DNA from: an uncultured Bacteroidota bacterium
GTDB lineage: Bacteria; Bacteroidota; Bacteroidia; Bacteroidales; M50B96
NCBI GenBank assembly: GCA_937954085.1
Contig: CALGAK010000125.1
Location: forward strand, 43,224 to 107,223
Length of the DNA: 64,000 nt
Direction: 5' to 3'
Shown here: piece after piece, positions 2,621-48,700 of the stretch
How positions within the stretch are numbered: the first letter of the stretch is position 1
How the letters are laid out: every line of letters starts with the position of its first letter
Notes under the pieces: generated by a model
Database searches by the model: none
What the model was told of the DNA's origin: nothing
What the model saw: only the letters and a program-made list of their open reading frames with translations
Made by a program: the position numbers and the translations under genes

Positions 2621-2622
2621 CC

Positions 2623-3603: not shown

Positions 3604-4896
3604 CAGTTCTCCAATCAAAGCCGGATCGTCGCCCGACTCAATCCCAACAATTTGAACCAATTGCCAGGAATTGGCAGGCAATTTTTTGCCCATCACCTTC
3701 ACCGGGACAAAATGCTCTCCTAAGCCAAGTGAGTAAGCATTGCCCGATTTCTCGATAATTAATCGTTGCTGTTTGCCAATGAAACTACTGCGATAGGTGC
3801 GTTTATTTTCTTCGGATAATAATCGCATTCCCTCGCTCCGCGCCGACTTCACCTTCTCGGGTACCTGATCGCCAGCCCGCGCTGCTCGCGTACCATCGCG
3901 CTTCGAGTACTTAAACGTGTGCACATGAGTGAATCCCATCTCTTTTACCCGATCCAGACTGGCCTGAAAATCCTCGTCCGTTTCGCCCGGAAAACCGACA
4001 ATGATATCGGTCGTTAAATTCATATCCGGACGCACCGAACGAATGGATTGAACCATCTCGGAAAAACTTCGTGCTGTGTACATGCGACGCATCTTCAGCA
4101 AAATAGCTTCCGAACCCGACTGCAAGCAAATGTGCAAATGTGGGCTCAACTTCGGATGATTGAGCATGGAGAATAATTTCTCGCCAAATCCTTCGGGTTC
4201 CATGGAAGAAATCCGTACGCGAAAATCGCCCGGCAAGGCCAAAATTTGCTCTATCAAATCTTCGAAAAGAAGACCCTCGTAATCGTAACGGCCAATATTT
4301 ACTCCGGTTATTACCAGTTCCTTGTAACCTATTCGGATCAGTTCGCGTGCATTTTCCAACACTTCCTCTACCGGACGACTGATCGCTCGACCGCGAACAA
4401 AAGGAATGATACAGAAGGAACAGAAATTATCGCATCCGTCTTGAATCTTGAGCAAGCTACGGGTATGGATGGTTTCCTCGCCAACGGCAAATCCAAACAC
4501 ATCCTTTTCATACTCATCGGGGTTGACTAACTCTCCTTTGAAATGAGCATCGACGATGGAAAAGATCGACGATTTGCGATCGTTATCAACCACATAAGTA
4601 ATTTGCTCGTTCGCGTTTAATTGATCTTTGCGGTGATTAGCCATGCAGCCGGTAACCAGCATAACCGCATCGGGTTTAACGCGTTTGCCTTGCTGTATGG
4701 TATTGCGCGATTTATGGTCGCTTTTATTCGTAACGGTGCAAGTATTCACTACATACACATCCGCTTCTTCTTTATAATCGACTACCTCGAACCCCCCTTT
4801 TTTGAATTGAGAAATCAGGGTGTCGGTTTCGTACTGGTTCAAACGGCAACCGAGTGTTTTAAAGGCAATTTTTTTAGCCATGGAAAACTCCTTCAT
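3598..4896 (-). CDS. mtaB: tRNA t6A37 methylthiotransferase MtaB (radical SAM)
   Basis: The N-domain reads KIAFKTLGCRLNQYETD, the radical-SAM motif is CDNFCSFC, and a TRAM-like C-terminus is present. The start may instead be the ATG at 4881 (MAKKIAF). Confidence 0.85.
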   Translation of the reverse strand: MKEFSMAKKIAFKTLGCRLNQYETDTLISQFKKGGFEVVDYKEEADVYVVNTCTVTNKSDHKSRNTIQQGKRVKPDAVMLVTGCMANHRKDQLNANEQITYVVDNDRKSSIFSIVDAHFKGELVNPDEYEKDVFGFAVGEETIHTRSLLKIQDGCDNFCSFCIIPFVRGRAISRPVEEVLENARELIRIGYKELVITGVNIGRYDYEGLLFEDLIEQILALPGDFRVRISSMEPEGFGEKLFSMLNHPKLSPHLHICLQSGSEAILLKMRRMYTARSFSEMVQSIRSVRPDMNLTTDIIVGFPGETDEDFQASLDRVKEMGFTHVHTFKYSKRDGTRAARAGDQVPEKVKSARSEGMRLLSEENKRTYRSSFIGKQQRLIIEKSGNAYSLGLGEHFVPVKVMGKKLPANSWQLVQIVGIESGDDPALIGELL

Positions 4897-4898
4897 TT

Positions 4899-6365
4899 TT
4901 AAGAATGAATCAATTCGAGCGACGATTGCTCAACCGAGGATCCCGCCAGCTCACCGGCTAAAGAGAAATCCAGTGCGGTAGTTACTTTAACCGATACAAT
5001 TTGACCAATCAAATCCTGCGACTGATGATACACCCGTATGTTGATTTTCCCTTCGGTGTAACCGGTCAGGTAGCCGGTTTTTTTATCCTTGCCGGTAATG
5101 AGAACCGGTACAATCTGATCCACCAATGCTTCATTATAAGCCCGCGACGACTGGGCAAACACATCGCTCAAGGCATGCAAACGCTCTTTCTTTACCTGAA
5201 TCGGCACATCGTCGTCCCAACGAGCTGAAGTAGCGCCCGGACGAGGAGAATAAACAGCAACATAAGCCATGTTGTACTTAAATTCTTCCATGGCTTTGAC
5301 CGTATTTTGAAATTGCTCCTCGGTTTCGCCGGTAAATCCTACAATGATATCGGTAAACAAGGTGGCCTGAGGAATTTTCTCACGGATGTATTCCACAATG
5401 TGCCGATACTTGCGCACATCGTGCTTACGATTCATGCGAATGAGCACTTTATCGTCGCCCGACTGAAGGGGTAAGTGAATTTGCTTGGCCAAACAAGGAT
5501 AAGCTGCAATCACATCGATCACTTCATCGCCCATATCGCGAGGATGCGGCGAGGTAAAATACACCCAAAAGGTTTTTCCCGATTCATTGCCGTATTCGCC
5601 AATATTCCGAAGGAGTTGCGCAAAGCTAATCTCCTCTCCTTTCTTGTCGAGACCATAGGAATTTACGTTTTGCCCCAGCAGAGTAATTGATTTGAATCCC
5701 CGATCGACAAGCGATTTAACCTCCTGCAGGATTTCGTCCGACGAACGAGAAACTTCTCTCCCGCGGGTATAGGGAACCGCACAGAAGGTGCAAAATTTAT
5801 CGCAGCCATTCTGAATGGGCACGAATGCTTCGAAATCGGAAGTATAATCGGGTTTGATATCCCAGAAATTATCGATTTGAACCCGTTCTTTATCGATGCT
5901 AAGTTGAATATCGCGCGCCGAAACCCGCTGCTTATTCCGGGCTAATTGAGCCAGGTCGATGCTGATTTCCGGGTCCGATTCCATTACTGGCTGCGGATTG
6001 GCCATTCGCAAGGCCGCAGGACTCACCACTCCGTATTGAGCAATCATTTCCGGGAATTGAGGAAGCTCATTCATGGTGAAAATAATATCGAAGGTTTTCA
6101 GAAATTGCTCCCTGTCCTTCGGTAAAACACAACCGGAAATAAAAGTAATGAGGCTTTCGCGGTCCTTCCGTTTATTCCATTTGTGAATTTTACCATACAC
6201 TTTATCGATGGATTTCTGACGCACGGAGCAAGCCAAAATTCCCAATAAGTTGGCATCTTCCTCCGATTCGGTCGGACGAAAACCCATACTTTCAATCACT
6301 CGTTTTACACGCTCGCTGTCCGATTTGTTCATCTGACAACCCAGCGTTATTAAATGGTATTTCAT
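4899..6365 (-). CDS. miaB: tRNA i6A37 methylthiotransferase MiaB (radical SAM)
   Basis: The N-terminus is MKYHLITLGCQMNKSDSE, the radical-SAM motif is CDKFCTFC, and the C-terminus is TRAM-like (IGQIVSVKVT). Confidence 0.88.
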   Translation of the reverse strand: MKYHLITLGCQMNKSDSERVKRVIESMGFRPTESEEDANLLGILACSVRQKSIDKVYGKIHKWNKRKDRESLITFISGCVLPKDREQFLKTFDIIFTMNELPQFPEMIAQYGVVSPAALRMANPQPVMESDPEISIDLAQLARNKQRVSARDIQLSIDKERVQIDNFWDIKPDYTSDFEAFVPIQNGCDKFCTFCAVPYTRGREVSRSSDEILQEVKSLVDRGFKSITLLGQNVNSYGLDKKGEEISFAQLLRNIGEYGNESGKTFWVYFTSPHPRDMGDEVIDVIAAYPCLAKQIHLPLQSGDDKVLIRMNRKHDVRKYRHIVEYIREKIPQATLFTDIIVGFTGETEEQFQNTVKAMEEFKYNMAYVAVYSPRPGATSARWDDDVPIQVKKERLHALSDVFAQSSRAYNEALVDQIVPVLITGKDKKTGYLTGYTEGKINIRVYHQSQDLIGQIVSVKVTTALDFSLAGELAGSSVEQSSLELIHS

Positions 6366-6472
6366 TCCTATCTTTTATTTGATTTGATTCTTCAGCCAAT
6401 CAAGCTCACAGGGAGTTTAAGTAACTCAGAACCAAATTTTAGCGGCCGCAAAAGTAAGTGAATTGCGATGGA

Positions 6473-7159
6473 TTAAAAATAAACCTCGGCATGAATATGC
6501 TCGGAGGGCAATCCTTGCGCTTCGAGAATATCGAAAGCGTCGTTAATCATATCGGAATTTCCGCATAGATAACAATAGGTCGATTGGTCGATCGGGTTTT
6601 CCTTTAGCCAATCGGTTACACGACCATAGTAATCGCCTTTCCCATCGCGCGATGCACATACGGTGATTCGATTCGATGGATAAATACTTTTCTCGTAGGC
6701 ATCGGCACCATAGCGTACCCCATGAATCAAATGATAATTCAATTCCGGGAAAGAAGTAACCATGCTATGAAAAGGGCTAATGCCTGTTCCACTGGCAATG
6801 AACAGATGTTTTCGCTCATTTAGCGTATCGGGTTTGAGCTGAAAAAATCCGAAAGGTCCTTCCACTTCAATCGGTTCACCGGGTTTCATGTTGCGTAAGC
6901 TCTTGGAAACCATTCCGTCGGCAACCTCTTTGATCAAAACCTCTAAATACTCGTCGTTCGGGGAACTGTAAATGCTGTAATCGCGTTTGTCGATACTCGC
7001 CACCTTACCAATGCTAATGTACTGACCGGGAATAAAATCCATACTTCCTTTGGTCATCCGAAGAACATAAGCTGTATCGGTTAAATGACGTACTTCAATT
7101 ACTTCGTGAACTCTCACTTCGCTAAGCGAATTACCTCGCTTTGTGCTTGCTTTCTCCAT
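6473..7159 (-). CDS. Ferredoxin/flavodoxin-NADP reductase family oxidoreductase
   Basis: It has the FAD-binding motif RDYSIYS and the NAD(P)-binding motif LFIASGTGISPF. The ORF is open to 7279, but homologues begin near MEKAS...VRVHEVIEV, which is the ATG at 7159. Confidence 0.8.
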   Translation of the reverse strand: MEKASTKRGNSLSEVRVHEVIEVRHLTDTAYVLRMTKGSMDFIPGQYISIGKVASIDKRDYSIYSSPNDEYLEVLIKEVADGMVSKSLRNMKPGEPIEVEGPFGFFQLKPDTLNERKHLFIASGTGISPFHSMVTSFPELNYHLIHGVRYGADAYEKSIYPSNRITVCASRDGKGDYYGRVTDWLKENPIDQSTYCYLCGNSDMINDAFDILEAQGLPSEHIHAEVYF

Positions 7160-7306
7160 TAGGTTGTTTTCTCTGTTTAAAAATTTGAAATAGTAACTCA
7201 ATCCAACACACAAAGCTGCGTTTTGTTCCGATAAAATAGAGGGTTTATGCAAGCTCTCTTCATGGTGCAAACCAGACACAGTTCAAGTCCCCTGGAACGA
7301 AAATGC

Positions 7307-8275
7307 TTAGGGCGAATTCAAGAGGATTACAGCTTGCTTAAAACCCCATTCTGGCAGCACCACCCAATACATGCCGGGAGGAAATCCGGTTAAATCAAGT
7401 GGTCTGGACACGAGCTCCCTCCTATCCGAATAAACCAGCCTTCCGGAAGCAGCAAAAACATACACCGATAGGTTTGTCTGCGCGGAAAAACCCGGAGCAT
7501 CGAAATAAAAAACTCCGGTTCCGGGATTCGGGAAAAGGTGAATCGTGGATTGAAACGGATTATCGGGCTGAACCGACAGAATTCCGGTTAGATTTCCCGC
7601 TCGCTCAATAACGTGAATCGCATTAACCGAGTAGAATCCATCCACATACAAATCGCTTAATTGATAATCGACCTGCAGAAAATAGGCACGGGTCGTACTC
7701 GAATCGTAAAACGCTACACGATAGGGCTCGTCGATGGCAAAGCCATCTACTTCGGGAGTTTCCGGGGCGTCGCCCCAAGCAGCGAGAGCCATTGCCCCAT
7801 TGCCCGACCAACGACTGTAACCTCCGCAATGAAATGCATTGTTCTGTTCGTAGAAAACCCCAAAATAGTCGCCGGCCTCGGCTACAAATCCTTCCAATTC
7901 ATTGGGCCGAATTAAAATGGTTGCATTTTGCCCGGTTAAAGCAAAGGTCCAATCGAAAGGAGCAGGTTCAAATACCTCTGCCTGAATCAAAAATGGATGG
8001 GAATTCGCATCAATCAAATAGGCGCTGTACATTCCAGCTTCTAACTGATAAAGGGTAGGTTCGTGAACGCCGTTGTTCCAATAAATATCGAAAGGTGCTT
8101 CTCCTTCGATGAGGCGAAAATCGAGCATCCCATCGCTTGCACCCGGACTGGTGGGAGACACCGTGAGTAGGTCGTAACGCAAATCGGCCTGAGCATTCAC
8201 TGAAAAAGAGAACAAAGTGAGCCCAAGCAAAGTGACACGAGCAACTAAAAACAAGACGTAAGGCATGAGATGCAT
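7307..8275 (-). CDS. Secreted T9SS cargo protein of unknown function
   Basis: It has a signal peptide (LTLFSFSVNAQ), a degenerate SprB-like repeat (GASDGMLDF...YWNNG) and a conserved WxF-TGxNxTILI / GDYFGVFY module. The T9SS CTD reads HLFPNPGTGVFYF...GMYWVVL. Confidence 0.8.
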   Translation of the reverse strand: MHLMPYVLFLVARVTLLGLTLFSFSVNAQADLRYDLLTVSPTSPGASDGMLDFRLIEGEAPFDIYWNNGVHEPTLYQLEAGMYSAYLIDANSHPFLIQAEVFEPAPFDWTFALTGQNATILIRPNELEGFVAEAGDYFGVFYEQNNAFHCGGYSRWSGNGAMALAAWGDAPETPEVDGFAIDEPYRVAFYDSSTTRAYFLQVDYQLSDLYVDGFYSVNAIHVIERAGNLTGILSVQPDNPFQSTIHLFPNPGTGVFYFDAPGFSAQTNLSVYVFAASGRLVYSDRRELVSRPLDLTGFPPGMYWVVLPEWGFKQAVILLNSP

Positions 8276-8362
8276 TTTTACCTGCTAAAAGTAGGAAAAA
8301 GCAGGGGATGCTATCCGCATCGCAAGGGATAAATTCTAACTTTGAGCGGCTTAAATTAATCC

Positions 8363-9229
8363 ATGAAAAAACACCTACTCTTTTTGGCTGTTATGTTGTT
8401 GCTTAGCTATTTGCCAAGCCAGGCACAACGTCAATTATGGACAGTCGGTACCGCTAATACCATGTCGAAAGGAGATATCCGCCTGGGTATCGCACAGCCT
8501 TCAGCCTATGGCCTATCGAATAGCCTCGAGCTGGCAGCAGGAGGATTCTACTTCCCCCTGGCGCCCAATGTAGCCTTGAAAAAACAGTGGATCAAAACGA
8601 AAAATCTCAGCCTTGCCAGCCGCCATGCCGCTACCTATCCGGGACCTCTACTCAGAAGTATTTCCGATCTGTCGTATTTCAACTATTTCCCCGATAAAAA
8701 TATCATTCCCGATGCCCTCGGAGTAAAATCGGAAATCATACTAAGCCTGGGTTTTGGATACACTACTTGTCCGGCATTTACCAGCGAAACCTTTAACCGA
8801 AACAATACCTTCAAAGGGCACACGGGCATACTAAGTTTTAAATTGGGCGCTCAAACGGGCTTTCCATTAGGCGATATTCCTTTCCCAATTATCGAAGAAG
8901 CGGTTATCCATCCTCAAACAGCCTTTTTTAATGAACAAATTAGTGCCTATGCCGGTATAGACTGGGACGGTCGTCTTTTAAAATACAGCGACATCAAAGT
9001 AGATTTGGATTATACTTACCTAAATACAGATTCCTGGGCACTGGAACATAAAACACAGGTTAACTGGTATCATGGTTGGCGCTATTTTCACTTTTTGTTC
9101 GGCTACTATGCCTCCTATGTGCAAGGACCCACACGTTCCTTCTTCTTCATTGGGCCGGTAATCGACTTTATGTGGACTTTACGCAAAGACAAAATCCAAA
9201 AAGGATTGTTTAAAGAAAAAATGTTTTAA
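8363..9229 (+). CDS. Hypothetical exported protein, possibly an outer-membrane beta-barrel
   Basis: It has a signal peptide (LLLSYLPSQAQ), alternating aromatic/glycine-rich segments and a terminal Phe. I recognise no family. Confidence 0.45.
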   Translation: MKKHLLFLAVMLLLSYLPSQAQRQLWTVGTANTMSKGDIRLGIAQPSAYGLSNSLELAAGGFYFPLAPNVALKKQWIKTKNLSLASRHAATYPGPLLRSISDLSYFNYFPDKNIIPDALGVKSEIILSLGFGYTTCPAFTSETFNRNNTFKGHTGILSFKLGAQTGFPLGDIPFPIIEEAVIHPQTAFFNEQISAYAGIDWDGRLLKYSDIKVDLDYTYLNTDSWALEHKTQVNWYHGWRYFHFLFGYYASYVQGPTRSFFFIGPVIDFMWTLRKDKIQKGLFKEKMF

Positions 9230-9231
9230 CC

Positions 9232-9951
9232 ATGGCCTTACCTTATAAAGATCAATCGGCTTCGAAAAAGGCACAAATTGCCGGAATGTTCAACAATATT
9301 GCCCATCGATACGATTTTCTCAATCACTTCTTATCGTTGGGAATCGATAAACTATGGCGACGCAAAGCAATTAACTTGTTAAAGCCCAAAGCACCCAAAA
9401 GCATCCTCGACCTGGCTACCGGAACAGGCGATTTGGCCATTGCTGCGCTGAAACTCAACCCCGAAAAAATCATTGGACTCGATATATCGACCGGGATGCT
9501 GGCGAAAGGGAACGAAAAAATTAAAAAACAGAAACTACATCCACGCATCGAACTGCTCGAAGGCGATTCGGAGAATATCCCCTACCCCGAAAATCATTTC
9601 GATGCCATTACCGTAGCGTTCGGAGTTCGTAATTTCGAAAATCTGGAAAAAGGATTGAGCGAAATGCATCGAGTGCTCCACAACGGAGGTGCTTGCGTGA
9701 TTCTGGAATTCAGTAAGCCACGCTCCTTCCCCATGAAACAACTCTACGGATTCTACTTCAAAAATATTCTTCCGCTGTTGGGTAAAATGGTCAGCCAGGA
9801 TCAATCGGCCTATACCTATTTGCCCGAATCGGTTCAGGAATTTCCCGATGGTCCCGATTTCCTGGCGATCTTAGAAAAACTTCACTTCAGAAATCTGCGC
9901 ATCTACCCTGTCAGCTTAGGAATAGCTAGTATTTATTATGCAGAAAAATAA
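9232..9951 (+). CDS. ubiE: Demethylmenaquinone / ubiquinone C-methyltransferase UbiE(MenG)
   Basis: Diagnostic segments are FNNIAHRYDFLNHFLSLGIDKLWRR and the SAM motif ILDLATGTGD. The C-terminus is typical of UbiE. Confidence 0.9.
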   Translation: MALPYKDQSASKKAQIAGMFNNIAHRYDFLNHFLSLGIDKLWRRKAINLLKPKAPKSILDLATGTGDLAIAALKLNPEKIIGLDISTGMLAKGNEKIKKQKLHPRIELLEGDSENIPYPENHFDAITVAFGVRNFENLEKGLSEMHRVLHNGGACVILEFSKPRSFPMKQLYGFYFKNILPLLGKMVSQDQSAYTYLPESVQEFPDGPDFLAILEKLHFRNLRIYPVSLGIASIYYAEK

Positions 9952-9954
9952 AAC

Positions 9955-10512
9955 ATGACCTGGAACTACCTCGATATCATTCTGATAATTCCATTGCTCA
10001 TTGCAGCTTACAAAGGATTTAGTAAAGGTTTTATTGTTGAAATTGCCAAACTGATTGCCCTGTTGGTGGGTGTTTACGGAGCCATGCGCTTCTCGCATCG
10101 GGTGGGCGCTTACCTTCAAACAAATCTCGGATGGCAATCGGAACACATGGGACTCATTAGCTTCGCGATTACCTTCCTTCTCCTGGTTCTCATAATTCAT
10201 TTCATTGCAAAACTACTGGATAAATTAGCCGATTCCATTGCTCTTGGCTTTGTTAATAACCTGGCCGGAAGCTTATTCAGAGTACTCAAAATTGGCTTCA
10301 TCCTCTCTGTGATCCTTTTCCTTGTCAACTCCTTCGATAAGAATGAGTACCTCATCGCGTCGGAAACAAAAGATAATTCCATTCTTTACCGACCGGTTTC
10401 TAAAATAGCACCTAGCGTTTTTCCCTATTTAAATCTGAAACTCTTAAAGGAAAAAACCGATGCTATTTTACCCACCGACAGCATTCCTCCTGCTACTACG
10501 AACACTCCATGA
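9955..10512 (+). CDS. cvpA: CvpA family membrane protein
   Basis: The N-terminus WNYLDIILIIPLLIAAYKGFSKGFIVEI is followed by four hydrophobic helices. Confidence 0.75.
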   Translation: MTWNYLDIILIIPLLIAAYKGFSKGFIVEIAKLIALLVGVYGAMRFSHRVGAYLQTNLGWQSEHMGLISFAITFLLLVLIIHFIAKLLDKLADSIALGFVNNLAGSLFRVLKIGFILSVILFLVNSFDKNEYLIASETKDNSILYRPVSKIAPSVFPYLNLKLLKEKTDAILPTDSIPPATTNTP

Positions 10513-10814
10513 CATCATCCTCCATTAAAATCGATTTAACGCAATTAGAGCACTGGCACAAAGAATCGGAAAGGCTCCATTTAATCTATATCGGATTCAA
10601 CGATGCTCCCGTATGGAAAGGGATTCAGGCTAAAAGCTATGCCAGCAACGAAATTCCGGAAATAATCGACGAGATTCCGGAACATGCTAAAACCATTGTG
10701 ATGTGCGATTGGGGGGAACGTAGCTTTTTCTTGTGTCAGGAACTGAGGGAACGAACCGGAAATGAAGCTATTTATCATCTCACCGGCGGTAGTAAGACTA
10801 TGCTCGATAGCTAA
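10509..10814 (+). CDS. Rhodanese-like single-domain protein
   Basis: The active-site loop CDWGERS matches the CxxGxR[ST] pattern. The start overlaps the cvpA stop by 4 nt. Confidence 0.65.
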   Translation: MTSSSIKIDLTQLEHWHKESERLHLIYIGFNDAPVWKGIQAKSYASNEIPEIIDEIPEHAKTIVMCDWGERSFFLCQELRERTGNEAIYHLTGGSKTMLDS

Positions 10815-10880
10815 TAATAATCAATTGCACATTGATACAGATGTGCTTTATTTGTAATCTTTTAATCAAAATCATTTCCT

Positions 10881-13046
10881 ATGTTACGTAAAATTGCTCT
10901 CTTCCTGCTTGTTGCACTCAACCTATCCTTCGCTGCCCAAGCCGACGAAGGAATGTGGTTGCTCAACAAGCTTCACCAATTGAATCTAAACGACAAAGGC
11001 TTAGAACTTTCGCCCGAAGAAATCTATGCCATAAACCAATCTAGCATCAAAGATGGTATTGTAGGGCTCACCATGGAAAGTAACCCCTTCCGCTTTTTCT
11101 GCTCCGGCGAAATCATTAGTTCACAAGGCTTATTCCTTACCAATCATCACTGTGGATACCGCCAGGTTCAGCAACACAGCTCGATCGAAAACGATTACCT
11201 CAGTAATGGATTCTGGGCTCAAAATCATGGCGAAGAACTCTACAACAAAGGCATGGCAGTGAGTATCTTATCGGAAATACGCGACGTAACCGAACGCATT
11301 GCTCCCGAACTAGAAAACATCGCCGATTTTAAAGAGAGAAATGAAAAAATTCGTGAACTGTCGAAAGTAATCGAAGACGAAGTAAATGAAACCTCGCATT
11401 ACAAATCGATTGTAAAACCCATGTTCGAAGGAAATCAGTTTTACCTTTTTATCTACGAAGTATTTACCGATATCCGTCTGGTAGGAGCTCCTCCCTCTTC
11501 GATTGGTAAATTTGGAGGCGATACCGATAACTGGATGTGGCCACGCCACACCGGCGACTTTACCCTCTTCCGCATTTACGCGGCTCCCGATGGTAAACCA
11601 GCCGCTTATTCGCCCGATAATAAACCGTATCAACCCAAGCATCACTTCCCCATTTCACTTCAAGGTGTCCAAAAAGACGATTTTGCTTTCGTAATCGGTT
11701 TCCCCGGTTCAACCGACCGTTACCTGACCAGTTTTGGTATTGAAGAAAGCCTGGAGCATTCTTACCCGGTGCGCATCGAAGCACGTGGTAAAAAACTCGA
11801 TGTCATGAAAAAACACATGAATGCCAGCGATAAAGTGCGTATTCAATATGCCAGCAAATACGCCGGAATCTCCAACTATTGGAAGTATTTTATTGGTCAA
11901 ACCAAAGGACTGAAAGCCTTAAAGGTGTACGATAAAAAACAAGCTTTCGAAGCGGAATTAGGCCAATGGATCTTAGCCGACGAGCAAAGAACCACGAAGT
12001 ATGGCAATGCACTCAAGGATATTCAAGAATCGTTCGAAGCCCGACGCGAAATTGCTAAAACACAGCAATATTATGGCGAAGGTTTATTCGGTATCGAAGC
12101 CCTTTTATTACCCCGCCGTTTCAATGAGCTTAGAAAAGTGCTTGAAAATAAAGAAAGTAGCGACGAAGACATTGCAAAAGCAGTCGAAAATGCGAAGGCT
12201 ACAGCCGATGCCTTCTTCAAAGATTACGATAGCGCCACCGACTACGACCTCTTCGTTGCCATGATGACCCTCTTTACCGAAGGGGTGCCTGTTGAGCAAC
12301 AACCCGAATTAATCCTTAAACTGAGCAAAAAAGCCAAAGGCGATTTTACCCGTATCGCAGATAAATTCTACGAAAAATCAATTTTTACCAGCCCCGAACG
12401 TTTCCAGGAATTTCTTGCAAAACCAAAAGCTAAAACACTGGCAAAAGATCCTTTCACCGAATTATGGGAAGCCAGCTACCAAAAATACATCGCTCTCAAT
12501 ACGCCTTTAGCTCCCATCAATGCTAAACTAGCCGAAGGTAAACGCCTATTTGTAGCTGCCAGCATGGAATACCAAGACGAAAAAGCACTCTATCCCGATG
12601 CTAATTCAACCCCTCGTTTTACCTACGGATATGTAGGCGATTATAAACCTGCAGATGCTGTTCACTACAATTACTACACGACCATCGATGGTATTATGGA
12701 AAAAGAAGACCCCACTAACGATGAATTCATCGTGGACGATCACTTTAAAAAACTATACCGTGCCAAAGATTTTGGCATGTATGCCGATAAAGATGGCAAC
12801 CTGTGGGTGAACTTCATTACCAATAACGATATTACCGGTGGTAATTCTGGTTCGGGAGTATTCAATGCACGCGGCGAACTTATTGGAACCGCTTTCGACG
12901 GTAACTGGGAATCGATGAGTGGCGATATCGCTTTCGAACCCGAACTGCAAAAATGTATCAATGTCGATATTCGCTACACCCTCTGGGTGATTGATAAATA
13001 CGCCGGTGCAAAACACCTCATTAACGAAATGACCATCATCCGATAA
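10881..13046 (+). CDS. S46 family dipeptidyl-peptidase (DPP7/DPP11-like)
   Basis: A signal peptide is followed by DEGMWLL. The catalytic His lies in LTNHHCG and the catalytic Ser in TGGNSGSGVFN. Confidence 0.9.
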   Translation: MLRKIALFLLVALNLSFAAQADEGMWLLNKLHQLNLNDKGLELSPEEIYAINQSSIKDGIVGLTMESNPFRFFCSGEIISSQGLFLTNHHCGYRQVQQHSSIENDYLSNGFWAQNHGEELYNKGMAVSILSEIRDVTERIAPELENIADFKERNEKIRELSKVIEDEVNETSHYKSIVKPMFEGNQFYLFIYEVFTDIRLVGAPPSSIGKFGGDTDNWMWPRHTGDFTLFRIYAAPDGKPAAYSPDNKPYQPKHHFPISLQGVQKDDFAFVIGFPGSTDRYLTSFGIEESLEHSYPVRIEARGKKLDVMKKHMNASDKVRIQYASKYAGISNYWKYFIGQTKGLKALKVYDKKQAFEAELGQWILADEQRTTKYGNALKDIQESFEARREIAKTQQYYGEGLFGIEALLLPRRFNELRKVLENKESSDEDIAKAVENAKATADAFFKDYDSATDYDLFVAMMTLFTEGVPVEQQPELILKLSKKAKGDFTRIADKFYEKSIFTSPERFQEFLAKPKAKTLAKDPFTELWEASYQKYIALNTPLAPINAKLAEGKRLFVAASMEYQDEKALYPDANSTPRFTYGYVGDYKPADAVHYNYYTTIDGIMEKEDPTNDEFIVDDHFKKLYRAKDFGMYADKDGNLWVNFITNNDITGGNSGSGVFNARGELIGTAFDGNWESMSGDIAFEPELQKCINVDIRYTLWVIDKYAGAKHLINEMTIIR

Positions 13047-13053
13047 AACATCC

Positions 13054-13091
13054 AAGCAGCAAACCTTTTTGAGGTTTGCTGCTTTTATTTT
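13054..13091 (+). terminator. Rho-independent terminator after the S46 peptidase
   Basis: AAGCAGCAAACC-tttttga-GGTTTGCTGCTT forms a 12-bp stem and is followed by TTATTTT. Confidence 0.8.
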
Positions 13092-13191
13092 AATCTCCTA
13101 ACTAAATATCTTTTCTAAACAGCATCAAAGCCCCCCCTTTAACGCTTCTGCTGTTCAAAAAATACGACCTGTTAAACCAAAAAATACCCAG

Positions 13192-14484
13192 ATGAAAAAA
13201 ATCGCAGTAATTGGATTGGGTTATGTCGGCCTCCCCCTGGCAGTTGAATTTGCTAAAAACCGACCCGTAATTGGATTTGATATCAAACCACAACGAATTG
13301 CAGAACTGAACGAAGGGCACGATCCTACGCTCGAAGTAGCCGACGAGGATTTAGTTTCGGTTTTACTGAAAGCAAAAAAAGATCTTGCCCTTAACAACAA
13401 AGGACTCTACATCAGCTCGAGAACCGAAGATATTTTCGATGCCGAAATCTACATCGTTGCCGTGCCAACGCCAACCGATAAAAACAACCGGCCGGATTTA
13501 ACTCCATTGGTTAAAGCCTCCGAAACTGTTGGGCGTGTTTTAAAAGATGGTGATATCGTTATTTACGAATCGACCGTTTATCCCGGTGCAACCGAGGAAG
13601 ATTGTGTTCCGGTGCTAGAGCAAGTTTCCGGTAAAAAAATGAACGAACATTTCTTTGTTGGGTACTCCCCCGAACGAATTAACCCGGGCGATAAAGTTCA
13701 CACCCTCACTACCATTAAAAAAGTTACTTCGGGCAGCACGCCGGAAATAGGCCAGGAAGTAGATACACTCTACCGCGAAATTATTACGGCGGGAACCCAC
13801 CTCGCTCCAAGCATCAAAGTAGCCGAAGCAGCCAAGGTAATCGAAAATTCCCAACGCGATATTAACATCGCCTTCGTAAACGAACTGAGCAAAATCTTCA
13901 ATAAAATGGGTATCGATACCCACGAAGTGCTCGAAGCGGCCAGTACGAAATGGAATTTTCTGCCCTTCAAACCCGGTTTAGTTGGGGGCCATTGCATTGG
14001 TGTCGATCCCTATTACCTGGCACAAAAAGCCCAGGAAGTGGGGTATCACCCGGAAATTATTCTGGCCGGACGTCGCTTGAACGATGGAATGGGAGCTTAC
14101 GTTGCAGGCGAAGTAGTGAAACTCATGCTGAAAAACGGAAAACCCGTAAAAGGAAACAAAGCTCTTATGCTCGGTATCACCTTCAAAGAGAATTGCCCCG
14201 ATATCCGAAATACACGTGCTATCGATATTTATCGCGAACTGATTAGCTATGGAATGGAAGTCGATTTATTCGACCCATGGGCCTCGTTCGACGAAGTTAA
14301 AGATGAATACGGAATCGAAATTTTAACCGATTATCCCAAACATAATGGCTATGGCGCCATTGTACTGGCTGTAGCTCACGATGAGTTTAAACAAATCGAC
14401 CTGTTGGAGCACAAAAAAGCCGGGGCCATTCTTTATGATGCTAAAGCAATTCTTCCCAAAGACTGGGTAGATGCACGCCTATAA
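13192..14484 (+). CDS. UDP-N-acetyl-hexosamine 6-dehydrogenase (WbpA/TviB-type nucleotide-sugar dehydrogenase)
   Basis: It has the Rossmann motif [15 protein letters not shown] and the catalytic Cys region [14 protein letters not shown]. At 430 aa the length fits this family. Confidence 0.85.
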
Positions 14485-14502
14485 GAAACTCTGCTAAAAC
14501 CG

Positions 14503-15093
14503 ATGGAAACAACTTATTTTGCCCACGAAACAGCCGTTATCGACAAGGGCTGTCATATTGGAGCTGGCACAAAAATCTGGCACTTCTGCCACATCATGTC
14601 GCATTCACGTATCGGGCAAAATTGTAACATCGGGCAAAATGTCGTTATCAGTCCGCAGGTTATACTCGGAAACCGCGTTAAAGTGCAAAACAACGTGAGC
14701 ATTTATACGGGTGTAACCTGCGACGACGACGTTTTTCTCGGTCCTTCGATGGTTTTTACCAATGTGGTGAACCCTCGATCGGCCATAAACCGTAAATCAG
14801 AATACCAAAAAACTCACGTCCACCGTGGAGCCACCATCGGTGCTAATGCCACCATTCTTTGTGGCATCGAGATAGGACAATTTGCCTTTGTGGGTGCCGG
14901 TGCGGTGGTAATTCGAAGTATTCCCGCTTACGCTCTAGTGGTGGGTAATCCCGCTCGCCATATTGGGTGGATGAGCGAATACGGACACCGACTTTACTTT
15001 AACGAAGAAGGCTTTGCAATTTGCCCGGAATCGAAAGAAAAATACCGGTTAGAAAACGACCGAGTAAGTAAATGGAATGAACCGCCCCAATAA
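14503..15093 (+). CDS. Hexapeptide-repeat N-acetyltransferase (WbpD/WlbB-like)
   Basis: Left-handed beta-helix repeats run throughout (IGQNCNIGQNVVI, VQNNVSIYTGV, IGANATILCGIEIG). The tail is VVGNPARHIGWMSEYG. Confidence 0.8.
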   Translation: METTYFAHETAVIDKGCHIGAGTKIWHFCHIMSHSRIGQNCNIGQNVVISPQVILGNRVKVQNNVSIYTGVTCDDDVFLGPSMVFTNVVNPRSAINRKSEYQKTHVHRGATIGANATILCGIEIGQFAFVGAGAVVIRSIPAYALVVGNPARHIGWMSEYGHRLYFNEEGFAICPESKEKYRLENDRVSKWNEPPQ

Positions 15094-15234
15094 TAATTAA
15101 TTCCAGTCGCTTATTCCTCGCTTTTCGTGTAAGCCACTAGCGTAAAACGATCTCTACGTGCATCCGATAAGGTCTACTGGTAATTTTTCATCCCAAATTT
15201 CAGCCATCTGCACCTCATGGTTTTATCAAAATAA

Positions 15235-15257
15235 TATAAGATTCCACCAATCTTATA
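15235..15257. repeat. AT-rich 9-bp inverted repeat in the ORF-free spacer
   Basis: TATAAGATT-ccacc-AATCTTATA. Its function is unknown. Confidence 0.4.
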
Positions 15258-15501
15258 AGACAAAGATAGGACACATTGATTTTAAAATACTTATAATCAG
15301 ATACATGTATTAATCAGGACAATCCCTCTATTTTTTTAACGATTTTCATTAGCTTAATTTGAAAAACCAAATGCAAGAGCAGGTGGTACCCTCAATTTCA
15401 TCCTTATTACCCAAAAGTCAAATTGAGACGTTCTTTTAACAAGCAATTATTTTTTCTCATAACATAGAGTGAAAAAAAATCCATAGGGGTATGGGTTAAT
15501 T

Positions 15502-15636
15502 GAGATAAGTAAGGTTGAACGGCGGTTGGGTCGATCTACTGTTCGAACCTGGAGAGCCTCTTTTTTTAGGGTTAAGAGTTTGCTCTCCGTTGCTTATCTC
15601 CTACAAAGGCAGTTGCACTAGCACTGCCTTTTTTTT
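15502..15636 (+). ncRNA. Candidate small structured RNA (three-way junction plus intrinsic terminator); family unknown
   Basis: The folding was done by hand. P1 pairs 15502-15512 with 15590-15600, P2 pairs 15513-15520 with 15541-15549, and P3 pairs 15551-15562 with 15574-15588. The terminator GGCAGT-N9-ACTGCC plus T8 lies at 15608-15636. No ORF is present and no downstream + strand gene exists. Confidence 0.45.
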
Positions 15637-15694
15637 ATTCCCTAGAAATGCATCCGTGATTATTGGAGCGAGGCGTCCGTAAAAGCTTGCGCTA

Positions 15695-16609
15695 CTAGCT
15701 TTTTATCTGTCGGATTTGATGCACGAGTTCGATAGCTTTCCCTGCTTCGGAAATACGATGCCCTTTTCCCTCTAAAATAGCCTGATAGTTTACGGTATGA
15801 AGCTGTGTAAATCCACTTGAAAAATCGATTTCTTCCCCATCGATCCGCAATTCGCGGAAACTATTAAGCCCTTGCGAGGCAACTTCCACGGGTAAATCGG
15901 CCGCATCGATGCTCATAAACCAATGTACTTCAGCCCGTGCAAACCGAAGTTTTCCTCCTGCTTGAGAGCCGGTATTTTGAATCACCTCCAACCCAAGTGG
16001 TTCTCCGAATATCCATACCAGCATATCGAAAAAATGAACCCCAATGTTCGTGGCAATTCCACCGCTTTTAGCCTCGTTCCCTTTCCACGAACGGAAATAC
16101 CATTTCCCTCGTGGAGTAATATACTGGAGGCTGAGCTGATAAAAACGATCCGGCTCCTGTTCTACGCGAGCTTTTAAAGCTTGAATAGCCGGATGAAAAC
16201 GCAATTGCAAAATAGTGTAGATGTTCTTCCCGGTTTCGCGTTCTATTTCCTCTAAGGCTTCTAGATTCCAAGGATTGAGCACCAATGGCTTTTCGCAAAT
16301 AGCATGGGCTTCGTTGCGCAATGCCATGCGAATATGGGCATCGTGCAAATAATTCGGACTGCAAATACTCACATAATCGATTTTAGCTGCCCCTTTGCGA
16401 CGGAGCTTGTCTAAATGCCGATCGAACCGTTCGGGCTCCGTAAAAAAGTCCGCATCAGGAAAAAAAGAATCCATAATCCCGACACTATCCGATGGATCGA
16501 GAGCAGCTACTAATTTATTTCCTGTTTCCTTAATCGCAGCTAAGTGACGCGGAGCCACATATCCCGCTACGCCAATCAATGCAAAATTCTTCATTTCCTT
16601 TTCGTTCAT
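15695..16609 (-). CDS. Gfo/Idh/MocA oxidoreductase (WbpB-like UDP-GlcNAcA 3-dehydrogenase)
   Basis: The N-terminus is MKNFALIGVAGYVAPRHL and the conserved EKP motif (ICEKPL) is present. The tracked ORF begins at a TTG at 16642. ATG candidates lie at 16609 and 16594. Confidence 0.8.
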   Translation of the reverse strand: MNEKEMKNFALIGVAGYVAPRHLAAIKETGNKLVAALDPSDSVGIMDSFFPDADFFTEPERFDRHLDKLRRKGAAKIDYVSICSPNYLHDAHIRMALRNEAHAICEKPLVLNPWNLEALEEIERETGKNIYTILQLRFHPAIQALKARVEQEPDRFYQLSLQYITPRGKWYFRSWKGNEAKSGGIATNIGVHFFDMLVWIFGEPLGLEVIQNTGSQAGGKLRFARAEVHWFMSIDAADLPVEVASQGLNSFRELRIDGEEIDFSSGFTQLHTVNYQAILEGKGHRISEAGKAIELVHQIRQIKS

Positions 16610-16707
16610 GAATCCGACGCTGGGACCAAACCATCCTAACAAACTGAGTAAAGAGAGAAGAATTGCCCAACCGGAAACAAAGGAAAGAAAAATCTACATG
16701 CAAAATC

Positions 16708-18396
16708 TTAACTATTCGGCATGGAAAGACCTTGGATAAATTCTCCCAAACGTACGTCGCGATTGGTCAAGCCTAAACGACTGCGTAATCGCACCCGCGA
16801 TTTATTAATGCTATCGACACTTTTCCCTGTTATCTCGGCTATTTCTTTCGTGGTTAACCCCATCCGTATAAAGGAACACAAGCGTTTATCGTTATCGGTC
16901 AAACGGGGATTGATGCGGTATAATTGCTCATAAAAGTCGCTATACACCTGAAGAAAATGAACTTCGAACTCCTTCCAGAACTGTTTCTCTTTAATCGTAC
17001 CCAGGTTCTGAATAGCCTTTCCAAATTCATCGGTCGATTGAGGGTTGCTTGTGTTTGCGCTTTGGAAGAATCGTCCTGCTTCCTCTAGAATTTTCTTATT
17101 CAATTGTAAGTTTTGAACCGTTTGAACCGTTAACTTCCGATTCATTTGATCCATTTGCACTTCTAAATCCTGTTTTTCATTCCGCAAGGATTCTGTTTCG
17201 GTGTTGAGCTCATTTTTCTCGGAATCGATACGTCGGTATTTTTTACGCAAACGATTATTTAAGATGAGAAAGGCAATCGCAATTAAAAACAAGAGAATAA
17301 TGGAAAATACATAGCGCAGGGTTAATTGGCGTTGCTTTTCATCGGCAATAGCTTCCCGCTCAGTAAATTCCTGAAGCATACGCTGCTTTTTCAACTCTAA
17401 AGCAGCCGACTGGAGCGACGATTTTTGAGCATATTTTTTCGACAACTCCAAATAATGGATGACACTATCGGATTGTTCTGTTTCACGATAAATTTCGACA
17501 AAATCATCGGCAATCAGACCCAGAAAATCATAAAGCTCAAGGGAATCGGCAATCTGATGCGATGCGTGATAATGGTGAAGAGCGACGTTATAGTTTTTGG
17601 TTTCAAAATAATACTGCCCCAAAGAATAAAGAGTATAAGCGATTCCTTTCCGATGTCCTAATTCCTTACGAATACGCAAGGACTCCTCTAAAAGATACTG
17701 AGCCCTCGATAAATTTCCGGTTTGAATATAAACGCCCCCTAAGTTATTGTACAACTTAGCTTGATCGAACTCCATCTCCGGGTATAATTGACTCATCTTA
17801 ATACCCTCTTCTAAATAAATAATGGCCTGATCGTAATCCTCTTTTTCTTTTTGAATGATTCCTAAATTGTTGAAAAGAACCAGGATTTGAGGTTCCGGCA
17901 AAAGTGCCTCTTTTTCATTTTGATAGGCAATCAGTGCCTCTTTCGCTAATAAAAAATAACGTTCCGCTTCATCGAATTCCTTTACATACAAATAAATGGC
18001 TCCCATATTACTGAAAGCAACCATTTTATAAAAGGAGTTCTGGATGAACTGCTCATTCGTGAGAAGGTGATGAAAATAATGAGATGCTGAGTCGATTAAC
18101 CCTGTCTCATAATACAAATTCCCTAAAAGATGATAAGCAGTAAGCGGTTGCATTCCTGGGTTTAAATCACTTTCTACCTTCAAAGCTTGATAAGCATATT
18201 CGAGTGCAATAGCTGGATTTACCGCATAATAAGCATTCGACAATTCAACCAATAATTCCAACTTCTCCTTTGAATCCTTCGTTTGAGCTAAGTGGTTTTT
18301 CAAGCTATCGATTTGAAGCTTGGCTGATAATAAGGGGGATGTAGCTAAGCATAGCAAAACCAAACCAAACAGAGAGCTTAGCAGCAATTTCAACAT
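16708..18396 (-). CDS. Membrane-anchored TPR-repeat regulator with a C-terminal LuxR-type HTH
   Basis: It has a signal/anchor (MLKLLLSSLFGLVLLCLA), multiple TPR-like repeats, one TM helix (YVFSIILLFLIAIAFLIL), a coiled coil and an HTH (KRLCSFIRMGLTTKEIAEITGKSVDSINKSRVRLRSRLG). The start was moved to the ATG at 18396. Confidence 0.75.
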   Translation of the reverse strand: MLKLLLSSLFGLVLLCLATSPLLSAKLQIDSLKNHLAQTKDSKEKLELLVELSNAYYAVNPAIALEYAYQALKVESDLNPGMQPLTAYHLLGNLYYETGLIDSASHYFHHLLTNEQFIQNSFYKMVAFSNMGAIYLYVKEFDEAERYFLLAKEALIAYQNEKEALLPEPQILVLFNNLGIIQKEKEDYDQAIIYLEEGIKMSQLYPEMEFDQAKLYNNLGGVYIQTGNLSRAQYLLEESLRIRKELGHRKGIAYTLYSLGQYYFETKNYNVALHHYHASHQIADSLELYDFLGLIADDFVEIYRETEQSDSVIHYLELSKKYAQKSSLQSAALELKKQRMLQEFTEREAIADEKQRQLTLRYVFSIILLFLIAIAFLILNNRLRKKYRRIDSEKNELNTETESLRNEKQDLEVQMDQMNRKLTVQTVQNLQLNKKILEEAGRFFQSANTSNPQSTDEFGKAIQNLGTIKEKQFWKEFEVHFLQVYSDFYEQLYRINPRLTDNDKRLCSFIRMGLTTKEIAEITGKSVDSINKSRVRLRSRLGLTNRDVRLGEFIQGLSMPNS

Positions 18397-18541
18397 TTTT
18401 CCTAAACCTTGACGAAAGCGTTCGATCACAGGTACTTGTTTAAAATTCGGGTTAGATGAAACTTGGAAACAGGTCCTACTATAAAGCCTGAAATTAGTTC
18501 TTTCCGTTAACTCCTGCAAGCCGAAAGCACTGTTTTAGAAT

Positions 18542-18578
18542 AAAAAAAAGGGTTAATCTCAATAAGCGAGATTAACCC
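18542..18578 (-). terminator. Rho-independent terminator after the peroxiredoxin gene
   Basis: On the minus strand, GGGTTAATCTC-gcttatt-GAGATTAACCC is followed by T8. Confidence 0.8.
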
Positions 18579-18602: not shown

Positions 18603-19268
18603 TTATAAAGACTTCTTAGCTAAGTAGAAATCGATACGCTCTACCGAAGTATCTTCGTTACGAGCTTTCATTTCAGCTAAAGTTTTTGGCGGTGGAACGA
18701 TTACTTTTTCGCCTGGTTTCCAATCCAGCGGCATAGCCACTTTGTACTTGTCCGCTGTTTGTAAGGCATTCAAAGCACGAAGAATTTCGTCCATGTTACG
18801 TCCTACATTCAAAGGATAGTACATGATTAAGCGAATCTTTTTGTTCGGATCGATAAAGAAGACGGCACGAACAGCAGCGGTTTCGCTTTCGTTGGGTTGT
18901 AACATACCGTATAATTTCGATACCTTCATGTCGATATCGGCAATAATCGGGAAATCGAAATATACACCGGTTTTTTCCTTTACGTTGCTTACCCAAGCTA
19001 AGTGAGAGTGAATGCTATCGATACTTAAACCCATCAATTCAGTGTTCAAGGCATCGAATTCATCTTTGCGCAAAGCAAAACCCGACATTTCGGTAGTACA
19101 AACGGGAGTAAAATCGGCAGGATGAGAGAATAAAACCACCCACTTATCTTTTGCAAAATCGTGGAATTTAATCGTTCCGGTGGTAGTAACTGCGGTAAAA
19201 TCGGGAGCAATGTCGCCAATAACCGGCATTTTGAAAACTTCTTCGTGTTTCATTTCTTGGTTTTCCAT
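18603..19268 (-). CDS. Peroxiredoxin (1-Cys / Prx6-type)
   Basis: Diagnostic segments are MPVIGDIAPDF and WVVLFSHPADFTPVCTTE. The start may be the ATG at 19229. Confidence 0.9.
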   Translation of the reverse strand: MENQEMKHEEVFKMPVIGDIAPDFTAVTTTGTIKFHDFAKDKWVVLFSHPADFTPVCTTEMSGFALRKDEFDALNTELMGLSIDSIHSHLAWVSNVKEKTGVYFDFPIIADIDMKVSKLYGMLQPNESETAAVRAVFFIDPNKKIRLIMYYPLNVGRNMDEILRALNALQTADKYKVAMPLDWKPGEKVIVPPPKTLAEMKARNEDTSVERIDFYLAKKSL

Positions 19269-19315
19269 GTTCTAATAAATTTAATAGTTAATAGTTAATT
19301 GGTATTTGTTGAAGA

Positions 19316-19786
19316 TTATTCATTTAAGTAGGCAGAAAACATCCAAACAAGCTTCTCTTGCTCACGGATATAATCGCTCATTAAAGCATTTGTTCCTTCG
19401 TCGCCGGCATCGCCTGCTAATTCCAGAATATCGCGTTGCATCGCAATTAAAGTCGAAAACGAGTTTAAAAGACTTTTTACAGCTACTTTACCATCGGTGA
19501 TATTCTTTGCTTCTTTGATTTCCGAAAGCTCTAAATAATCGGTGAAGGAATGGGTTGGAATGTGCCCGAGGGTAAGCACTCGCTCAGCAATTTCATCTAC
19601 TTTGACCACTAAATCGTCGTACAGCTCTTCGAATTTAGCATGCAGTTCAAAAAAATTACCTCCCCGTATGTTCCAGTGATAACCACGGGTGTTCATGTAA
19701 AAAATCTGATAGTTAGCGAGCAGTAAATTCAATTTTTTCGAAAGATTTTCTGCTTTTGAAGTGTCAATTCCAATTCTGTTTTTCAT
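19316..19786 (-). CDS. dps: Dps family DNA-protection/ferritin-like protein
   Basis: LLANYQIFYMNTRGYHWNIRGGNFFELHAKFEELYDD matches the Dps ferroxidase-site region. Confidence 0.9.
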   Translation of the reverse strand: MKNRIGIDTSKAENLSKKLNLLLANYQIFYMNTRGYHWNIRGGNFFELHAKFEELYDDLVVKVDEIAERVLTLGHIPTHSFTDYLELSEIKEAKNITDGKVAVKSLLNSFSTLIAMQRDILELAGDAGDEGTNALMSDYIREQEKLVWMFSAYLNE

Positions 19787-19892
19787 AATGTGTAAGCGTT
19801 TAAGGGTTGTTCAAATTTTACACTGCAAATGTACATCACTTGGGAATATAAGACAAATTGATAATTGTTATATTTGTATAAAATAAACTTAT
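19787..19892. promoter_or_regulatory. Divergent dps / oxyR promoter region
   Basis: The box TAtaTTTG at 19869-19876 (+) sits 17 nt before the oxyR ATG. CAAAtgTA at 19826-19833 reads TAcaTTTG on the minus strand, 40 nt before the dps ATG. Both fit the Bacteroidota -7 consensus TAnnTTTG. No clean OxyR operator was identified. Confidence 0.35.
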
Positions 19893-20825
19893 ATGACCTT
19901 ACAACAACTCGAGTATTTAGTGGCTTTAGACAAACACCGTAACTTCGTAAAAGCAGCCGAGAGCTGCTATGTGACGCAACCCACCCTTACCATGCAATTG
20001 AAAAAGCTGGAAGAAGAATACGGTTTCCAGCTCTTTAATCGAAGTGAAAAACCACTCCGTCCGACCGAAAATGGCCTCATTTTCATCGAAAAAGCGCGCG
20101 AGATTTTATCGCGGGTGGAGGAATTAAAAGGATTTATGAAAACGAATACCGAAGACATTAACGGCGAATTTACCATGGGAATCATCCCTACTCTCGCTCC
20201 TTACATCTTGCCACGGTTTCTACCCTACTTCATTGAGGCGTTTCCTGAATCGAAACTTTTCATTCAAGAACTACAATCGGAACAAATCATTGAAAAACTC
20301 AAATCCAACCAACTCGATTTAGCCATTATTGTAACCCCCTTGCACGAATATGCCCTGCGCGAAATACCCTTATGCAACGAAACCTTCTTGGTTTATCTGC
20401 CGGAAAATTGCCCGCTCATTCATCATCACGAATTGGTCGATGCCGATTTAGAGGCTTACGAATTGCTTTTATTGGAAGAAGGACATTGCTTTAGAGACCA
20501 AGCCCTGAATATTTGCAAATCGATTCCACGCGACTCCAATCGATTCATCTACCAAAGTGGTTCCATCGAAACACTCAAATCGCTTGTTGATAAAGGTCTG
20601 GGATACACACTTATACCGGAGTTATCGATAACCACTCACGACGATTCGCGGCGGATCAAACGATTTCGCGAACCGGAACCTTCGCGTGAAATCAGCCTTG
20701 TAGTAAACAAAGCCTTTCACCGGGAACGACTACTGGATAATATTCGAAAAGTACTCCACGATCATTTGCCCGAAGCCATGGTAAAAAACCGACCGCGGGT
20801 CAGAATAAACTGGCGGACGAAATAA
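19893..20825 (+). CDS. oxyR: LysR-family hydrogen-peroxide sensor OxyR
   Basis: The HTH reads MTLQQLEYLVALDKHRNFVKAAESCYVTQPTLTMQLKKLE and the redox Cys region reads LLLEEGHCFRDQAL. The gene is divergent from dps. Confidence 0.85.
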   Translation: MTLQQLEYLVALDKHRNFVKAAESCYVTQPTLTMQLKKLEEEYGFQLFNRSEKPLRPTENGLIFIEKAREILSRVEELKGFMKTNTEDINGEFTMGIIPTLAPYILPRFLPYFIEAFPESKLFIQELQSEQIIEKLKSNQLDLAIIVTPLHEYALREIPLCNETFLVYLPENCPLIHHHELVDADLEAYELLLLEEGHCFRDQALNICKSIPRDSNRFIYQSGSIETLKSLVDKGLGYTLIPELSITTHDDSRRIKRFREPEPSREISLVVNKAFHRERLLDNIRKVLHDHLPEAMVKNRPRVRINWRTK

Positions 20826-48698: not shown

Positions 48699-48700
48699 AT

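Follow-up and report, generated by a model that had tools for sequence, protein, structure and literature searches.

A terminator-capped three-way junction between convergent wbpD and wbpB genes as a candidate species-restricted noncoding RNA of an uncultured Bacteroidales lineage

Between the convergent genes wbpD and wbpB of an uncultured Bacteroidales lineage lies a 176-nt module (15465-15640) in which a small hairpin, a three-way junction and an intrinsic terminator follow one another on the + strand. Tentatively, at a probability of roughly 40%, we read this module as a candidate noncoding RNA restricted to the species, whether as an sRNA in its own right or as the 3′ end of the wbpA-wbpD transcript. 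All positions given here are those of the window, i.e. the whole stretch of 64,000 nt that was analysed. The RNA would be read from the + strand and would measure ~135-175 nt, with its 3′ end at the hairpin-U8 terminator (15608-15636). A compact, almost fully paired three-way junction with a small hairpin on the 5′ side would form its body. The original prediction had proposed an orphan sRNA at this site, an interpretation that is plausible but unproven. Conservation does not support it, although the available relatives are too distant and too rearranged for a decisive test. As such, the candidate is of an ordinary kind, namely a lineage-specific 3′-end or intergenic RNA candidate.

The genes around the module are arranged as follows:

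10881-13046, + strand: S46 peptidase
13192-14484, + strand: wbpA-like dehydrogenase
14503-15093, + strand: wbpD, UDP-2-acetamido-3-amino-2,3-dideoxy-glucuronate N-acetyltransferase (Pfam Hexapep; JGI homologue names)
15695-16642, - strand: wbpB, UDP-N-acetyl-2-amino-2-deoxyglucuronate dehydrogenase (Pfam GFO_IDH_MocA; JGI homologue names)
16708-18519, - strand: TPR/DUF6377 protein
18603-19268, - strand: peroxiredoxin

wbpD, the last gene of the + strand pair wbpA-wbpD, converges with wbpB on an AT-rich spacer of 600 nt that holds the element, and 58 nt separate the wbpB stop from the T8 tail of the module. The spacer had been described as free of ORFs, which is borne out inasmuch as only short frames with TTG or GTG starts, of at most 55 aa, overlap the element. 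A small protein or type I toxin was rejected as an explanation, the only candidates being TTG-start ORFs of 31 and 55 aa, the latter of which is shifted out of frame in a variant strain. Likewise, the position of wbpB on the opposite strand (15695-16642) agrees with the earlier statement that the element is not the 5′ leader of the next gene; a riboswitch or 5′ leader was rejected on this ground and because the unit is closed by a terminator. For the wider neighbourhood, Pfam was run on 31 ORFs of at least 110 aa between 10.9 and 56.2 kb, minus 48683-52021, with the ends of the window lying outside the scan. These 31 ORFs are ordinary chromosomal ones (including RuvB, NadA, YbeY, MnmG, glycogen metabolism and a Prx-Dps-LysR cluster), and by Pfam none of them is a reverse transcriptase, Cas protein, transposase, integrase or TROVE/Rsr protein.

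The core of the module consists of the following elements:

15502-15600, + strand: three-way junction (RNAfold MFE)
15502-15511 with 15591-15600, + strand: P1, 10-11 bp with one U-G pair
15512-15550, + strand: P2, a stem of 11 bp in which G15545 is bulged, capped by a weak 5-bp hairpin
15551-15588, + strand: P3, 12 bp interrupted by a UUU bulge, with a U-rich loop of 11 nt

All coordinates and pairings of the fold originally drawn by hand are present in the sequence, and RNAfold arrives at the same closed three-way junction for 15502-15600, with an MFE of -39.8 kcal/mol, a z-score of -4.78 and an equally stable fold in 0 of 200 dinucleotide shuffles. The MFE structure has an ensemble frequency of 0.107, and the centroid is close to the same structure. 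One detail of the hand fold did not survive: A15512 pairs with U15550 and not with U15590, hence the junction linkers measure 0/0/2 nt instead of 0/1/1. Base pairing takes up about 77% of the 99-nt junction body, in near-perfect stems of 10-12 bp; the junction has four G-U pairs on the + strand, and the GC content is 45%. On the - strand, the same stretch reaches an MFE of -30.0 kcal/mol and a z-score of -5.1.

Towards the outside, the junction is flanked by three further features:

15472-15479, either strand: A8 tract, the left edge of the module and a U8 tail when read on the - strand
15478-15497, + strand: hairpin hp1, AAUCCAUA-GGGG-UAUGGGUU, 8 bp including one U-G pair, -7.3 kcal/mol
15608-15636, + strand: intrinsic terminator, GGCAGU-U-GC-ACUA-GC-ACUGCC followed by U8, -10.9 kcal/mol

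The canonical terminator with eight T that had been placed 7 nt downstream of the junction is thus confirmed in both position and make-up. A simple terminator scanner skipped it because the loop limit of the scanner is 8 nt. Only on the + strand does a strong hairpin directly abut a U8 tract; when the right-hand hairpin is read on the - strand, just UUU follows the stem, which makes it a poor terminator in that direction. What the original prediction had missed is the larger module, in which an A8 tract, the 8-bp hairpin, the junction, the terminator hairpin and a T8 tract succeed one another, and with it the second hairpin upstream and the fact that the opposite strand folds almost as significantly. 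In the + strand MFE structure of 15465-15640 (-67.4 kcal/mol, z -6.0), most of the A8 tract pairs with the T8 tail and thereby closes three domains, while the - strand of the module folds at -52.8 kcal/mol, again with a z-score of -6.0.

How exceptional is this stability? Among 12,782 sliding 100-nt windows covering both strands, the junction takes rank 2 with a GC-corrected z-score of -4.4, and among 5,802 windows of 176 nt the module takes rank 1 with a z-score of -4.8, corrected for GC and G+T. The runner-up of the latter set (z -4.3) lies inside the wbpD coding sequence. The module is thus a real outlier, although its lead over coding-region windows, which are presumably meaningless, is modest. 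The first rank among the 100-nt windows goes to 45071-45170 on the - strand (-38.6 kcal/mol, GC-corrected z -4.65), which lies antisense within the 5′ region of a gene for a TPR protein (45020-46762) and shows that extreme stability can arise without obvious RNA function. The 7-mer GGGUUAA, which is found at both 15493 and 15569, was also considered and set aside, given that a 7-mer repeat within 165 nt has an estimated chance probability of ~0.8.

Shuffle z-scores do not separate the two strands of the module, and this symmetry is part of what speaks for a different reading, one we regard as rather unlikely: a back-to-back terminator or insulator between convergent operons. The right hairpin with its U8 would then stop transcription on the + strand, the left hairpin, read in reverse with its own U8, would stop wbpB, and the junction, which both sides would transcribe, would merely keep the two apart as a stable spacer or act as a roadblock and would have no role as a free RNA. 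Such a device fits the convergence of wbpD and wbpB, and its boundaries would be drawn by homopolymer runs that are rare in the window: 7 runs of at least A8 and 3 of at least T8 occur in the 64 kb, and one of each flanks the element within 165 nt. Furthermore, both strands present the same order of junction, 6-7-nt linker, small hairpin and U8, both have a z-score of about -6, and wbpB has no other terminator. In the nearest relative, moreover, the corresponding site behind wbpD is occupied by a simple bidirectional terminator of the form A9-hairpin-T4. On the - strand, however, hp1 is reduced to 5 bp (CCAUA-CCCC-UAUGG, -3.9 kcal/mol) followed by A and U8, a very weak hairpin that gives wbpB no more than a weak terminator-like unit, and two terminators do not need a 99-nt junction between them. 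The G-U pairs, too, are distributed unevenly, with 7 of 66 pairs in the + strand MFE structure compared to 1 of 55 on the - strand. This asymmetry (one-sided p ~0.04) favours one strand and is what would be expected of an RNA read from the + strand, although it is suggestive only. Taken with the U8 tail, the G-U pairs favour the + strand.

If the preferred reading of a noncoding RNA is followed, two variants have to be considered, which differ in where the RNA begins. The terminator at 15608-15636 starts 515 nt after the wbpD stop, and in between (15093 to 15608) a terminator scan found no terminator-like site on the + strand, nor did inspection by eye reveal any obvious hairpin preceding T-runs. 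In the 3′ UTR variant, the candidate would be the stable 3′-terminal piece of a wbpA-wbpD transcript with a 3′ UTR of ~540 nt, which is unusually long, unlike that of other local genes that end right past their stop. The S46 peptidase gene, for instance, has a strong terminator directly past its stop (13054-13090, a 14-bp stem followed by UUUUAUUUU), a textbook example of a normal terminator of this genome. Compared to this arrangement, the distance of 515 nt gives the impression that the terminator at 15608 closes a unit of its own.

In the variant of an independent sRNA, transcription would start from a weak promoter around 15450-15470. The original prediction had reported no clean TAnnTTTG promoter box, and indeed the + strand of the spacer (15094-15694) holds no exact match. 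The closest resemblances are a Bacteroidota -7 box with one mismatch, TATTTTTT at 15448-15455 on the + strand, and the following sites:

15423-15465, + strand: weak promoter-like sequences, sigma-70-like with 9 of 12 matches at 15423-15450 and 15436-15465

Speculatively, these sequences would put the start just 5′ of the A8 tract. Five sigma-70-like sites were observed in the region compared to 2.4 +/- 1.6 expected, and in the AT-rich spacer chance matches of this kind are to be expected. Of the proposal of an independent sRNA, the fold and the terminator stand, whereas independence does not follow, as there is no clear promoter and the structure could equally end a 540-nt 3′ UTR. The only exact -7 box of the spacer, TATCTTTG at 15261-15268, lies on the - strand and faces the 3′ end of wbpD. 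A short antisense transcript or a small one could originate from this box; the ORFs that follow it are tiny (14-17 aa).

Could the element belong to a known class that was overlooked? The original prediction had seen no signature of a known RNA, and neither an Rfam cmscan-type search nor ARAGORN gave a match that would contradict it: with the 4227 models of Rfam 15, the whole window yielded 0 matches at gathering thresholds, and ARAGORN found 0 tRNA or tmRNA genes in the window. When the Rfam search was relaxed to E <=10 for 15100-15750, only noise of 12-20 bits emerged, compared to gathering scores of 40-114 bits. We thus consider it very improbable that a riboswitch or leader, a tRNA-like or bacterial Y RNA, a retron ncRNA or a ribozyme was missed. 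What might suggest such a class is GUUCGAAC in P2, which resembles a tRNA T-loop. This sequence is located inside helix P2, however, its flanks form no T-arm and ARAGORN was negative, for which reasons the T-loop reading was rejected. The same lack of a T-arm and the negative ARAGORN and Rfam results led to the rejection of a bacterial Y RNA (YrlA), there being no TROVE protein among the 31 ORFs between 10.9 and 56.2 kb. Furthermore, no gene follows downstream on the same strand, and these 31 ORFs include no gene for a reverse transcriptase, TROVE/Rsr, Cas protein or transposase.

For conservation and covariation, the comparison with related genomes had a negative but weak outcome. Only one further copy of the element was found, on a near-identical strain contig (L081, SRR21836767) of 99% identity. 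Its junction is identical except for T15591A, which costs the junction-proximal pair A15511-U15591 of P1 without compensation and leaves the fold in place at -38.8 kcal/mol. In the terminator of L081, the stem is intact, the loop has two substitutions and the T-run is shortened from 8 to 7, which shifts the frame of the 55-aa ORF mentioned above. In the loci and collections searched, homologues were lacking, and with them any covariation.

At first sight, the distribution of differences between L081 and the window is striking, with 0 in the 254 nt of 15337-15590 and 10 in the 104 nt of 15591-15694. Purifying selection on the element was nevertheless rejected as an explanation of these figures (0/254 vs 10/104), since they are unsafe in light of another contig, L127, which stems from this sample too (SRR21836767), shows 3.7% divergence in the left spacer and disagrees with L081 at 15365, 15371 and 15373 within their 53-nt overlap (15337-15389). 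This conflict means that the sample contains at least two haplotypes or that L081 is a mosaic. The 58 nt from the T8 tail to the wbpB stop (15637-15694) differ from L081 at 6 positions, i.e. ~10%, compared to 1.4% in wbpB, and this stretch is a local hotspot or recombination boundary.

Beyond these strains, the lineage of the organism is barely sampled. After the 99% strain copy, the next wbpB homologue is 68% identical, and after strain copies of 99-100%, the next wbpD homologue is 78% identical. In the best 80 wbpB loci from species-representative genomes (protein identity <=68%), blastn, nhmmer and a junction-derived covariance model (R1) detected no relative of the element; one match at E=1 in a wbpB locus (L042) was dismissed as an ordinary terminator. 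Five S46 peptidase loci held no homologue either, and S46 relatives at 63-65% identity have no wbpA or wbpD at the site. The search was extended to metagenomes, where a stem-based, transition-tolerant pattern gave 0 matches and a loop-based pattern gave 37, all attributable to chance, as none of them resembled the element in its flanks or folded comparably. Three viral scans brought no real match, with neither of 2 viral pattern matches being homologous, and blastn against plasmid and phage collections returned no match.

The nearest other genome (L082, GCA_036681025.1), whose S46 peptidase is 79% identical, is syntenic with 1349-15044 of the window at a DNA identity of 68-74%, and this synteny stops at the 3′ end of wbpD. 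There, a spacer of 175 nt with a plain A9-hairpin-T4 bidirectional terminator leads to an unrelated gene of 1662 aa. The junction is hence absent from the syntenic site, in a genome of ~74% DNA identity and at a locus that is rearranged. A sister genome (L126, GCA_018401015.1, JAGYLP010000006.1) has 95.6% DNA identity to 881-13999, and its contig ends inside wbpA; an assembly break at this point, just 5′ of the element, would agree with surface-sugar genes that vary between strains.

According to another interpretation, which we likewise regard as rather unlikely, the element is functionless palindromic DNA that was left behind by a rearrangement or insertion, e.g. a decayed fragment of a mobile element or an inverted duplication, and owes its stability to its origin rather than to selection. 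Most of the 80 loci whose fetched stretch includes both genes have wbpD next to wbpB and pointing the same way, so that the convergent order with an inverted wbpB is derived here, and synteny with the nearest relative ends exactly in the spacer. The long, near-perfect stems look like those of young inverted repeats, nothing is conserved outside the species, similar stability ranks are reached inside coding regions, and the A8 tract, hairpin and T8 tract resemble a simple bidirectional terminator that was split by an insert of ~128 nt. Conversely, a second copy is missing from the 64-kb window, from the 80+ loci of relatives and from the collections of metagenomes, viruses, plasmids and phages, the flanks show no target-site duplication by eye, and no transposase or integrase is present among the 31 ORFs between 10.9 and 56.2 kb. 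A G-U bias on the + strand is also not expected of decaying DNA palindromes, even though its p-value is only ~0.04-0.07.

Comparable palindromes, the REP/BIME-type and MITE-like repeats of Enterobacteria and others, are multi-copy elements at the 3′ ends of genes or between convergent genes; they are transcribed into 3′ UTRs, where they can block exonucleases. The candidate shares with them its high stability, its palindromic nature and its place between convergent genes. It differs from them in being single-copy in 64 kb and absent from the searched collections, with no terminal duplication seen; as far as the window and the metagenome, viral, plasmid and phage searches reach, the latter having given no real match, this speaks against a repeat of this type. 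A similar mixture of likeness and difference applies to bidirectional intrinsic terminators, with which the candidate has in common that it separates convergent genes and that an A-tract and a T-tract mark its two sides. A canonical one is a single hairpin abutted by A and T tracts, whereas here the tracts are ~150 nt apart and enclose three structural domains, and the - strand hairpin is weak.

For the preferred reading of a noncoding RNA, the closest models are sRNAs. Trans-acting sRNAs need open seed regions, which makes pairing of ~77% unusual for them. 3′ UTR-derived sRNAs of many bacteria use the terminator of the upstream mRNA and need no promoter of their own, with the stable fragment accumulating. 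Like Bacteroidota sRNAs such as GibS, the candidate is intergenic, falls in the range of 100-200 nt and has a Rho-independent terminator at its 3′ end, and restriction to a strain is frequent among these sRNAs; unlike them, it lacks a clean promoter and is ~77% paired at 45% GC. In B. thetaiotaomicron, where 3′ UTR-derived sRNAs have been reported as well, 49 high-confidence intergenic sRNAs with a terminator have been described, whose start sites were mapped and of which 76% have the canonical TAnnTTTG promoter (PMC7366714). Several of them are rich in AT and have little structure, which leaves their seed regions open (PMC7366714). As many as 27 of the 49 are strain-specific, so that non-conservation is normal for the class (PMC7366714).

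Against the reading as a noncoding RNA are the missing clean promoter and homologue, the lone polymorphism, which is uncompensated, and the plain terminator of the relative. Should the RNA be made, its stable body might shield the 3′ end from exonucleases, and the RNA would be fully complementary to any read-through transcript of wbpB. Because wbpB is without a good terminator on its own strand before 15473, the two RNAs could pair and affect the fate of the wbpB mRNA. A bolder version, which we deem quite improbable, holds that the element founds a new class of noncoding RNAs, compact and paired almost throughout, in an uncultured Bacteroidales lineage, where it could act as a protein-binding scaffold or as a cis-antisense regulator of the convergent wbpB message; its uniqueness would then be due to the poor sampling of the lineage.

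If real, the candidate would be a further lineage-specific sRNA or 3′-end element of a phylum in which, Bacteroides apart, RNA biology has received little attention, and it would hint at a possible control of a cell-surface sugar pathway by convergent transcripts, wbpA, wbpB and wbpD being genes for UDP-2,3-diacetamido-2,3-dideoxy-glucuronate. At present it raises no question of long standing. Intergenic RNAs that end in a terminator and are specific to a strain are common (27/49 in B. thetaiotaomicron, PMC7366714).

Further along the window, the peroxiredoxin gene belongs to an ordinary oxidative-stress cluster (18603-20825) that comprises a 1-Cys peroxiredoxin, a Dps/ferritin-like protein and a divergent LysR-type (OxyR-like) regulator. 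Downstream of the peroxiredoxin gene, the 14-mer CCTTTTTTTTATTC, which is the same as the tail of the candidate's terminator, occurs again at 18538-18551 on the - strand, where it presumably forms another terminator tail.
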